Source: Paludibacter sp.
GTDB lineage: Bacteria; Bacteroidota; Bacteroidia; Bacteroidales; Paludibacteraceae
Length of the DNA: 64,000 nt
Assembly: GCA_027450045.1 (NCBI GenBank)
Contig: DAIDKM010000003.1
Span: 29,187 to 93,186 of the forward strand
Direction of reading: 5' to 3'
Positions 15,303 through 63,854 of this stretch are shown here, one piece after another. A model generated the notes under the pieces. The model worked only from the letters and a program-made list of their open reading frames with translations. It searched no databases and was not told the DNA's origin. The position numbers and the translations under genes are program-made. Position 1 is the first letter of the stretch, and every line of letters begins with the position of its first letter.

Positions 15303-15812
15303 AATTTGATTTTAATTATATGTTAACAAATAAAGCCAGTTTTCTGATTCTTTGAATCAGGATATTAACAGAGGTGTTAGCCTCAAAGGGTCGGGTTCAA
15401 AATGTTTCTTGTACAATCATTTTACATAAAGTATTTTACATAAGCAATTTGATTTAAGAGTTAATAATATCGATTAATCTTCGCAGTTTGAAGGTGCTTC
15501 TTTAGTAATTAGTTTGCTGTGACTTTAAGGACTAATTTTTTATCGCTTTTTGACGAAACTGTTGATTCTTGAGAAAAGAAAAAAGAAATTGATCGAGACC
15601 TTGTGAGGTAATATTGTTCTTTTTGGATTCAGAATAATATCCTAGGAGGTTTATTATTCACTAACATCAAGTTGCTATTCTTGCTATAACTTAATGAAGT
15701 GAGCAATCTTAAGATATAAACAACAAAGGAATTGTGGTTTTTCATAAGATATTAAAATTAGATTGTTAATGAAAATACTGAGATGAGACAAATAGAAATT
15801 CATCTCACATTG

Positions 15813-15820
15813 CAAATGTA
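15813..15820 (-). promoter_or_regulatory. Bacteroidota -7 promoter box, candidate susC promoter (~500-nt leader)
   Basis: TACATTTG on the minus strand matches TAnnTTTG. Confidence 0.55.
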
Positions 15821-15839
15821 AGATGAATAACCCATCACT

Positions 15840-15873
15840 TGTGGGGGAAATTCAGTCAGAATGAGGGGGTAAA
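15840..15873. promoter_or_regulatory. Direct repeat, candidate HTCS binding site
   Basis: TGTGGGGGAAAT (15840) and TGAGGGGGTAAA (15862), 22 bp apart and 9/12 identical, just upstream of the -7 box in AT-rich DNA. Confidence 0.5.
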
Positions 15874-15916
15874 ATAACTAATTTGAATTAACAAAAGTGG
15901 CGCTAAATCTTGATTA

Positions 15917-20325: not shown

Positions 20326-20493
20326 TTATTGCAACCTCACAAAAGTTTGGATTGTTTCTCTTTGTTCTGCTAATGTCCTTTTCTCTCTTTTTGCAGATAC
20401 CCAATCATAAATCTGACTGATCAGATGTTCTCGTTGCTTCTTTTTGTTCTCCGACTTTATCCGCTCTTTCTTCGTAGTTGGTTCATATTTCAT
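20326..20493 (-). CDS. Small charged ORF (55 aa), hypothetical or gene remnant
   Basis: Manual translation MKYEPTTKKERIKSENKKKQREHLISQIYDWVSAKREKRTLAEQRETIQTFVRLQ*; below the ORF-track cutoff; no family recognised. Confidence 0.3.
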   Translation of the reverse strand: MKYEPTTKKERIKSENKKKQREHLISQIYDWVSAKREKRTLAEQRETIQTFVRLQ

Positions 20494-20512
20494 GCGAAGC
20501 TTGGTATAGGAT

Positions 20513-20567
20513 AATACCTATATAAAACCTATCTAATACGTATATGAAACCTATATAATACCTACTT
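20513..20567. repeat. 11-bp degenerate tandem array (5 units, core CCTATA)
   Basis: AATACCTATAT AAAACCTATCT AATACGTATAT GAAACCTATAT AATACCTACTT, preceded by an inverted TATAGG. Confidence 0.8.
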
Positions 20568-20696
20568 AAATAAAAAGGTATTATCTACGTATCACTTACA
20601 TATTTTATTCATTTCAGTTATATAATTGCTTATACCAAGATATAGAGATGAATTGGAGGAATAGTGAATGAGCAACAAAGATTCGTTACAAATGGT

Positions 20697-53909: not shown

Positions 53910-54272
53910 AAAAAATAGGTATAATAATGAGCTGCAAAGGTACAACAGAAAGTAAGATTGTCGAAAGAAATCTCAGCAATTTTCATTGAAACAAATTCAA
54001 AAGAATAAATTCTCATGGAACAAAACCTGACAATTTATAAAGTAAGAAGATGATTTTGAGTTGCTATTTGTCCTGTTTTACCATGTTGTTGAAAAGGTTG
54101 TCGGCATCCGGCTAAAATCTTGTTTTGTTGTGATGCCTTTATTTTCGGAAATAAAGATAGGAATCCAATACCTCCCAAACAATATGTACACGTCCATATA
54201 CTTACATTAAATCCCCATAGGAATCGATCAAAATCCTCTACGTTAACATGAAAACCTATAGGATTTCCGCTA

Positions 54273-54393
54273 TTTGTTTAGGCCTTCTATAGGATTTCTA
54301 TAGGAATTGTATAGGGTATGTATAGGGTTTATGTAGGACAGCTATAGACCAACCATACTCCAGCCATACTCTACCAATAGACCAGCTGTTGGA
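54273..54393. repeat. 11-bp degenerate tandem array (about 11 units, core TATAGG)
   Basis: TTTGTTTAGGC CTTCTATAGGA TTTCTATAGGA ATTGTATAGGG TATGTATAGGG TTTATGTAGGA CAGCTATAGAC CAACCATACTC CAGCCATACTC TACCAATAGAC CAGCTGTTGGA; palindromic CCTATAGG at 54255-54262. Confidence 0.8.
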
Positions 54394-54742
54394 TGAGTTT
54401 TCTGTTCTCACTTTGACAAATCAACCATCTTGTTTCGCGATGTAAGCTATAAACTGATTGTTATAGAATTTGAAGCAGTCGCAGGCATCAAAATCCTTCT
54501 TGAAGTCAACCATACGATAAAACATAATCAATTTGGCGTTCGTTGCATTGTGAATACAAAAAAGTTATGTATTTTTGTTGTCTCAATAATCAGGCTAAAA
54601 AAGGCATTTCAAAACACTGAACGTTTGTTCCCTTGATCTTCTCATTGACCTAACAGATGGATGGGTAAAGACTATAAACTTCCAATATACATTAAGATCA
54701 AATGATAAACTGAAAAAGTCATCTTTAAATATTTATCAAATC

Positions 54743-63079: not shown

Positions 63080-63727
63080 TTAAAATTTCAAGCCAGCTCT
63101 GACTGATAATGATCCAGCCGTCCCATGAACATCTTTCGTAGTTTGATAATCATGATATTGTGCATTTTGCATATTGTATCCAGCCATAAAGAATAATACC
63201 GTTTTCTTAGTCAGATAAATATCCATCCCGAAAGAAGGCTCGGCCATAAATCCATACATATTTCTTAAATCACCTTGCCCGATATCAAAAGCATAGCCGA
63301 TATTCCCTGCCACAAATGGAGAAACAAGTCCTTTCGACAAAGTTATTTTTACTTGTAAGAATAATGGCAACAAAATATTACCTCCATAATTATCAAAATC
63401 ATGTGACGTTACATCATAGTACATTGATGATTCATTAGGAAAATAAACAGGAGAATAGTTATATAGTCTCATTTTGTTACATAAAGCGTTGGCATACCTG
63501 GCTCCAATCCCAACTCCTGCAAAAATGTATTGATTAAGTCTGACGCCATTTATCATATCAATTTCATAGGAGCTCTTGGTGAATTCATCTAACCCGATAA
63601 ATACTCCGGCCTCAAAAGACTTTTCATAACTAACCTGAGCTTTTATATAAGAACAACTTATCATTATCGAAAAATAGTTGCTATAAAGCGCCAGGATTCT
63701 TTTAATCGCGTCCCTCTGGTTTTGCAT
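63080..63727 (-). CDS. Outer-membrane beta-barrel-like hypothetical protein (start uncertain)
   Basis: Alternating beta-strand pattern (FAGVGIG, LPLFLQ, PFVAGNIGY, FFMAGYN) and C-terminal VRAGLKF. Confidence 0.65.
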   Translation of the reverse strand: MQNQRDAIKRILALYSNYFSIMISCSYIKAQVSYEKSFEAGVFIGLDEFTKSSYEIDMINGVRLNQYIFAGVGIGARYANALCNKMRLYNYSPVYFPNESSMYYDVTSHDFDNYGGNILLPLFLQVKITLSKGLVSPFVAGNIGYAFDIGQGDLRNMYGFMAEPSFGMDIYLTKKTVLFFMAGYNMQNAQYHDYQTTKDVHGTAGSLSVRAGLKF

Positions 63728-63739
63728 CGGGCGATGCGA

Positions 63740-63854
63740 TTATATCGAACGATTCGACAGCCTAATGTCGGATGCCCCGACAGCCTAATATCGAACGATT
63801 CAACAGCCTAATGTCGGATGACCCGATAGCCTAATATCGGATTGCCCTATATTT
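63740..63854. repeat. 23-bp tandem array of mini-palindromes, A-B-A-B-C order
   Basis: TTATATCGAACGATTCGACAGCC / TAATGTCGGATGCCCCGACAGCC / TAATATCGAACGATTCAACAGCC / TAATGTCGGATGACCCGATAGCC / TAATATCGGATTGCCCTATATTT. Confidence 0.9.

Follow-up and report, generated by a model that had tools for sequence, protein, structure and literature searches.

Short repeated units are known from several bacterial settings. In the parC centromere of plasmid R1, ParR binds to ten iterons of 11 bp, bacterial minisatellite or VNTR loci such as those of the MIRU type are intergenic tandem arrays in which strains differ by whole units, and the REP/BIME-type elements of enterobacteria are short, non-coding, dispersed, intergenic elements with a mosaic and palindromic structure. 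In Streptomyces, the PHO boxes of PhoP are operators composed of 11-nt direct repeat units that serve a regulator of the OmpR/PhoB family (PMC2275107), and the PATC minisatellites of C. elegans are 10-bp-periodic (bioRxiv 10.64898/2026.08.08.743475). The nearest described element to the locus reported here is BrickBuilt of Porphyromonas gingivalis, a MITE that contains a 23-nt minisatellite (PMC4596501). Full-text literature searches yielded no description of 11-bp-period arrays in Bacteroidota, and since a survey of short tandem repeats ends at 9-bp units (PMC12699852), the 11-bp class falls between microsatellite and minisatellite surveys.

Here, we analyzed a 64-kb stretch of DNA (the window) that PanB comparison places in Paludibacteraceae, near Microbacter and Paludibacter MAGs, and that recurs in metagenomes of mine drainage, landfill and groundwater. 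Two 11-bp arrays are found in it (Table 1). Array 2, at 54283-54392, is a non-coding run of ten consecutive 11-mers in one register between panB and gcvH, in which units of the TATAGG type come first and are followed by TATAGA, CATACT and AATAGA variants. TAGG ends at 54282, 54293, 54304, 54315, 54326 and 54337, six times at one offset; the cores of the strong half are TATAGG four times and TGTAGG in the fifth slice, and the units of the degenerate half hold (T/C/A)ATA at a constant offset. A previous sequence-only reading of this DNA described six TAGG at one offset and then shifted units without loss of register, which our analysis confirmed up to 54392. It counted about 11 in-phase 11-mers; array 2 is counted here as ten units. 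On the minus strand, units read TAAACCCTATA, CATACCCTATA, CAATTCCTATA and GAAATCCTATA.

Table 1. Positions of the two arrays and their associated features in the window, and identity of spacer segments to the diverged strain L202.
Feature	Position	Strand	Details
Array 1	20511..20565	+	five 11-bp units: ATAATACCTAT, ATAAAACCTAT, CTAATACGTAT, ATGAAACCTAT, ATAATACCTAC
Dispersed hairpin element holding array 1	20510..20603	+	about 94 bp; excess metagenome depth, several flanks
Bacteroidetes-type -7 box TACCTTTG, candidate	53935..53942	-	faces panB; about 340 bp from array 2
Conserved flank	54207..54249	.	84% identity to L202, against 43-59% in adjoining spacer
Palindrome GAAAACCTATAGGATTTC	54250..54267	.	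inverted unit abutting direct unit; 12-nt arms, 92% complementary
Linker	54268..54282	+	one degenerate unit, TTTAGG end; 54277-54304 fits the pattern with 1 mismatch
Array 2, strong half	54283..54337	+	five 11-bp slices, TAGG core ending each
Array 2, degenerate half	54338..54392	+	five in-phase units: TATAGACCAAC, CATACTCCAGC, CATACTCTACC, AATAGACCAGC, TGTTGG...
Bacteroidetes-type -7 box TATTTTTG, candidate	54570..54577	+	faces gcvH; about 180 bp from array 2
panB promoter			identity to L202 95-98%
Array block	54207-54381		identity to L202 77-93%
Block around gcvH -7 box			identity to L202 77-84%
gcvH-proximal end of spacer			identity to L202 86%
Rest of spacer			identity to L202 43-59%

Within the window, the periodicity was borne out both by Tandem Repeats Finder and by autocorrelation against shuffled controls. 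Lag-11 identity over 54283-54392 is 0.66, compared with 0.21 at lags 10 and 12; among 2000 shuffles, no lag exceeded 0.46. With Tandem Repeats Finder, the segments 54285-54338 (4.9 copies) and 54349-54371 were assigned period 11 and 54272-54326 was assigned period 22, and both periods were detected again at 20511-20564 in array 1. A lag-11 scan of all 64 kb passed the threshold only at 20510-20576 and 54263-54375, and the pattern TATAGG-N5-TATAGG-N5-TATAGG, allowing up to 3 mismatches, has 8 matches in the window against 0.02 expected, all of them inside the two arrays. With head-to-tail tandem units and significant periodicity, array 2 is a minisatellite. A separate 23/46-bp tandem array is present at 63742-63842 (Tandem Repeats Finder scores 113 and 175), the sole place in the window to pass a lag-23 scan; the minus-strand ORF beside it (63080-63727) has no Pfam match at 1e-5.

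Comparison of strains showed how the array changes. PanB is identical to that of the window in four assemblies. The spacer of one of them is identical to ours, L204 and L205 have exactly one unit fewer (the missing unit being CCTATACAATT on the minus strand), and the diverged strain L202 has two extra units, making 12 in phase. All 12 begin with (T/C)ATA, and three adjacent ones are identical TATAGGAATTG units. The degenerate half of L202 reads TATAGATCAGC, TATACTCCAGC, TATACTCCAAC, CATACTCTACC, TATACTCTGGC, which shows the drift of array 2 to be the graded decay of one TATAG-type unit. The 11-bp deletion allele was also present in contigs from three metagenome runs, and metagenome contigs break at array 2. 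The known alleles thus comprise 9, 10 and 12 units; length changes only by whole 11-bp units and variant units spread locally. This whole-unit difference between strains makes array 2 a VNTR and supports the earlier proposal that the repeat family is kept up by local duplication, which also agrees with the identical adjacent units of L202 and with the unit family common to both arrays. Units may be gained and lost through replication slippage or unequal recombination. We consider it very probable that array 2 is a slippage-driven 11-bp minisatellite belonging to a dispersed, lineage-specific repeat family.

Whether the array does anything for the cell is a separate matter. It could be a neutral or selfish minisatellite that occupies a long permissive spacer, binds no partner and leaves the host unaffected, and its polymorphic copy number agrees with this, as does its fate in close relatives. 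In the Microbacter species L122 (93% PanB), the panB/gcvH pair is kept and the array is absent from the orthologous spacer, in which nothing is alignable past the promoter. In L129 (98% PanB), panB has another upstream neighbor, gcvH is not adjacent, and the array is replaced: about 950 bp of non-coding DNA upstream of panB (L129:1450-2400) contain short "word" repeats unlike array 2, with a duplicated module of about 390 bp that consists of CAATTGA heptamer runs, TTCCCTAT/TGCCTAT word arrays and GC-rich hairpins. The absence from L122 and the presence of other repeats in L129 indicate that any function of array 2 is dispensable or short-lived.

Several observations do not fit well with neutrality. 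In the array 2 unit, variation is concentrated in the columns of the 5-bp spacer, with almost none in the ATAG core (z = 2.83, p = 0.0006), so that a 4-6 bp core has stayed fixed as the 5-bp spacer drifted. No indel breaks the register over 10-12 units. The whole panB/gcvH spacer is 67% identical to that of L202, with four conserved islands (Table 1), and the array block is far better kept than nearby spacer. In the panB coding sequence, 93.7% identical between the two strains, 50 of the 52 differences are at third codon positions. Conservation of the array block is about that of synonymous sites or slightly better, with a faster turnover in the remainder of the spacer. Constraint is thereby suggested but not proven, since repeat homogenization can mimic it. 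For the spacer as a whole (53910-54742), the identity of 43-59% in most parts is far below what panB third positions predict (~18% differ), which implies a turnover faster than point mutation alone explains.

The surroundings of the array point in the same direction, in that a palindrome and further half-sites are conserved, which is also difficult to reconcile with a neutral repeat. The palindrome described earlier just left of array 2 was found as the core CCTATAGG at 54255-54262, inside GAAAACCTATAGGATTTC and 20 bp left of the array, and GAAAACCTATAGGATTTC is conserved in three strains. Its TAGG end lies 20 bp before the TAGG end at 54282, and the palindrome is therefore outside the 11-bp register. 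The conserved flank holds another half-site, CCCCATAGGAATC (54212-54224). In L202, the palindrome is complete at this second site as well (TCCTATAGGA), and the two are 42 bp apart.

With one core per helical turn, half-sites would be lined up along a single face of the DNA. From the CCTATAGG palindrome and the units with a perfect TATAGG as starting points, a sequence-specific protein might extend head-to-tail into the weaker units of array 2 and would thereby form an architectural nucleoprotein structure within the long spacer, with no dedicated operator for panB or gcvH. Alignment of half-sites on one face could be the reason why the array has persisted and has been retained better than the spacer near it. 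Together with the one-turn period and the conserved palindrome, the fixed core and its variable spacers fit such an arrangement, as does the relative conservation, and a nucleoid protein that binds here is plausible. We put forward a protein-binding lattice only tentatively, as something closer to doubtful than to probable, and the neutral or selfish repeat is nearly as likely. The best overall explanation, a slippage-driven minisatellite that presents one-face binding sites to a putative protein, has in our judgment about an even chance of being correct.

If a protein does bind, another proposal would be a gene-specific operator, in which an OmpR/PhoB-type or similar winged-helix regulator occupies the 11-bp repeats and controls panB, gcvH or both. 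The neighbors of array 2 are housekeeping genes (folD, panB, gcvH, the gene for a DUF5686 protein, queF and ribH), with no mobile-element genes among them. The Bacteroidetes-type -7 consensus is TAnnTTTG, and by their match to it the two boxes in Table 1 are putative promoters; the one facing gcvH is within a conserved island (54490-54596) and the region of the one facing panB is 95-98% conserved in L202. Array 2 is therefore located between two divergent candidate promoters, and its 11-bp direct repeats with a conserved 6-bp core, strong units preceding weaker in-phase ones, resemble PhoP units (PMC2275107). However, a fixed, promoter-adjacent position shared by orthologs is lacking: the two -7 boxes are 180 and 340 bp away and the array is missing from the orthologous spacer of L122. 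The hexamer is not enriched elsewhere in the window (24 TATAGG against ~20 expected, 9 of the 24 within the arrays), and members of the family are also found in convergent gaps, which have no promoters. A dedicated panB/gcvH operator is thus unlikely.

Both arrays are located in unusually long gaps between divergent genes, as the sequence-only reading had it, and the two gaps are the longest in the window (833 and 625 bp; median 70 bp). The third-longest gap, 15303-15916 (614 bp, between co-directional genes), has small 14-bp and 7-bp repeats, and the highest predicted curvature peak of the window (~15542) is in it. Array 2, between divergent candidate promoters in the longest gap, could be a mechanical element that acts without protein, its phased curvature or flexibility pinning supercoils or insulating the divergent units. 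The repeat length approximates a single helical turn, one half of each unit is AT-rich and the other GC-rich, and PATC of C. elegans offers a eukaryotic precedent (bioRxiv 10.64898/2026.08.08.743475). Nevertheless, a wedge model places array 2 at the 92nd percentile of curvature in the window (array 1 at the 99th), with an end-to-end ratio within the range of shuffles, and the wider family has no preference for divergent gaps. The curvature of array 2 being unexceptional, we rejected an intrinsically curved DNA element, and we regard a protein-independent mechanical role in general as very unlikely.

A role at the RNA level, as a small RNA, leader or terminator made of repeats, was likewise considered. 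A local hairpin is possible between 54250-54261 and 54287-54298, and array 1 forms a long hairpin. Against this, neither strand of array 2 folds better than shuffled sequence (z = -0.95 and +0.54), the panB/gcvH spacer has no match in Rfam 15 either at the gathering threshold or at E <= 1, and the wider family shows neither strand bias nor general hairpin potential (see below). Four metatranscriptome runs gave fragments of gcvH only, in contigs too shallow to judge transcription. An RNA role is unlikely in the extreme. Other readings were set aside: a replication origin (no DnaA-box cluster), a plasmid or phage origin (no match in plasmid or phage collections), and an iteron origin or partition site, on both of these grounds and because of the housekeeping neighbors. 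Small ORFs were also discarded, there being no conserved ORF at either array; a 34-aa ORF to the right of array 2 is frameshifted in L202.

The unit family of array 2 also exists as a dispersed hairpin element, namely the one that holds array 1. The resemblance proposed earlier between the reverse complement of array 2 and an array at 20.5 kb was upheld, since array 2 units match those of array 1 (TAAAACCTATC, TAATACCTATA, TGAAACCTATA) at 7-10 of 11 positions and the common family is roughly WAAAWCCTATA on the minus strand. The two arrays show no similarity of flank, leader or tail. The element at 20510-20603 has 10-bp inverted ends (GATAATACCT at 20510-20519 and AGGTATTATC at 20576-20585), while array 2 has only an internal palindrome, and it folds into a long hairpin (z = -3.3 and -4.4). 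Depth of metagenome contigs over the element is about 5-10 times higher, with several different continuations, whereas array 2 has neither excess depth nor a second context in those contigs. The element is 88-89% identical (E 1e-21 to 1e-23) to the center of a 218-bp element (L407, L408), which is itself 94.5% identical between two unrelated contexts in other metagenomes (L407/L409 and L408) and has no terminal inverted repeats at its ends. Dispersed copies with a common leader and tail, as in BrickBuilt, are therefore seen for array 1 only and not for array 2. That array 1 behaves as a dispersed element is also what a selfish repeat would be expected to do.

Some further observations concern the array 1 side. 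A lysine-rich 55-aa ORF (20326-20493, minus strand) starts 18 bp from array 1; it has no homolog among 5.8 billion protein clusters and no Pfam family, and is therefore probably not a gene. Searches of genome contigs with a 20-mer of array 1 gave chance coding matches only, and exact look-ups of RuvB and its neighbor returned no record. In the htpG-side spacer that carries an array-1-type element (L407:11380-11750), there are separate two- to three-copy 11-bp duplications, TTTGTTCTATA, AAGGTTACGAT and GTAACATAGGA, whose sequences are unrelated.

To place these arrays in a wider frame, one genome per species was scanned for three TATAGG cores at exact 11-bp spacing, which gave at least 120 loci; the class-level figures that follow rest on the matches listed by pattern scans and on 8-kb loci. 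Among the matches listed, 87-94 of 120 loci are labeled Bacteroidota, as are about 49 of 76 genomes. Bacteroidota make up about a tenth of the species in the scanned collection. A control core of the same composition, GGATAT, also gave at least 120 loci, with 60 of 120 in Bacteroidota among the matches listed and with families of its own. This control indicates that TATAGG is not special and that 11-bp arrays are common in Bacteroidota, and it weakens the case for TATAGG as a unique phylum-wide motif. The TATAGG families include TATAGGAYGAA in Bacteroidaceae and Prevotella (at least 18 loci in one genome, with conserved leader and tail modules), TATAGGGACCT in Chitinophagaceae and TATAGGATRGT in a Bacteroidales MAG. 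The TATAGG pattern is also present in 80 viral contigs.

The Bacteroidaceae and Prevotella elements are mosaics, in which a leader ..CCCTCCGCCAAGCCCnnTAAACACTACC..TTTCGAAGGTTTTA is followed by 4-6 TATAGGAYGAA units, in-phase CCTACAAACTA/CCTCCAATCCC units, a TTAATCATTAACCC module and a GAGCCATAG..CTATGGCTC hairpin. Examples among loci L001-L120 are L018, L030, L070 and L110 (CAVEIE01) and L022, L034 and L037 (CAVEFV01). The same mosaic element fills a bin labeled 'Firmicutes bacterium CAG:95', which suggests that this bin is mislabeled or contaminated.

Eleven-bp arrays are common in the intergenic DNA of Bacteroidota irrespective of neighboring genes or gap type. Among the TATAGG matches listed, 120 of 123 arrays are outside ORFs, and the 90 that could be classified divide into 20 divergent, 16 convergent and 54 tandem gaps, the same split as the spacer-length background (20%, 17% and 62%). 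The association with divergent promoters suggested by the sequence-only reading was thus not sustained, and the divergent setting of arrays 1 and 2 probably reflects merely that those gaps are the longest. The arrays listed have no strand bias relative to neighboring genes (33 vs 21), all-against-all clustering of ORFs from the 120 listed TATAGG loci found no recurrent neighbor gene, and only 25% of family members have hairpin potential of z < -2. Inverted cores are 4-5 times enriched in the flanks of class arrays, with no fixed phase. Occupation of any gap type in proportion to its length, with no strand bias and no recurrent neighbor, is the distribution expected of a neutral or selfish repeat, which the unrelated unit sequences across the class favor as well.

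The period itself is not confined to this family. For the other arrays in these loci, the period distribution has peaks at 7 and 11 (19 at 11, 1 at 10 and 3 at 12). Periods of 7, 10-11 and 21-22 are common in an unbiased sample of 541 kb of Bacteroidales DNA from around panB, where period 11 is modest at 3 arrays. Exact two-copy duplications in that sample have no 11-bp peak, and a birth bias for 11-bp duplications was accordingly rejected. Since the cores of other Bacteroidota 11-bp arrays are unrelated, one cognate protein cannot explain the class, and the 11-bp period could have a cause independent of sequence. It is conceivable, although rather improbable, that intergenic arrays of arbitrary units are created or preserved throughout the phylum by a process that gauges helical turns irrespective of sequence, that they act as nucleoid or topological organizers, and that the 11-bp arrays are the one-turn form of 21/42-bp period-locked arrays. 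Candidates would be a chromosomal protein that oligomerizes in steps of 11/21 bp, or a ruler-like mechanism of duplication or repair.

If such arrays bind protein or act topologically, they would represent an unrecognized layer of chromosome organization in Bacteroidota, where few nucleoid proteins are characterized, and array 2, with alleles of 9, 10 and 12 units, is a compact and naturally polymorphic test case. If they are products of slippage only, they are still useful as strain markers and also explain the breaks of metagenome assemblies in these spacers.

Set beside known systems, array 2 shares with parC of R1 the number and length of its direct repeats, about ten of 11 bp, arranged in two blocks of about five, and ParR occupies its iterons in the manner that the protein-binding lattice would imply for array 2. 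Unlike parC, array 2 is chromosomal, in a housekeeping context, with no parM/parR-like genes nearby, no plasmid match and no promoter between its two blocks. Compared with VNTR loci of the MIRU type, its unit is much shorter (one helical turn), has a fixed core and a variable spacer, and is linked to the abundance of arrays with this period throughout the phylum. As in REP/BIME elements, array 1 and the Bacteroidaceae elements join hairpins with other short modules, but there is no link to a RAYT-type transposase, and array 2 consists of direct repeats with no significant hairpin.

The PHO boxes of PhoP resemble array 2 in their 11-nt period, in their core and variable spacer and in their succession of good and then weaker in-phase units, and PhoP-type proteins bind head-to-tail on one helix face (PMC2275107), a mode of binding that would also be that of the lattice proposed for array 2. 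Operators of this type, however, are located on or beside promoters, comprise 2-6 units and show conservation as a regulon, whereas array 2 has 10-12 units in variable number at a distance of 180-340 bp from the -7 boxes, and L122 lacks it. BrickBuilt differs in its unit of 23 rather than 11 bp and in having no sequence similarity to the arrays, and array 2 has no detectable leader, tail, terminal inverted repeats or second copy. Even so, BrickBuilt and array 2 are both found in Bacteroidales, are strictly intergenic, are composed of tandem units without spacers and gain or lose whole units between strains. The flanks of BrickBuilt are conserved in some copies and in others are lacking altogether, and a conserved leader and tail are likewise present in array 1, in the L407/L408 element and in the TATAGGAYGAA elements.
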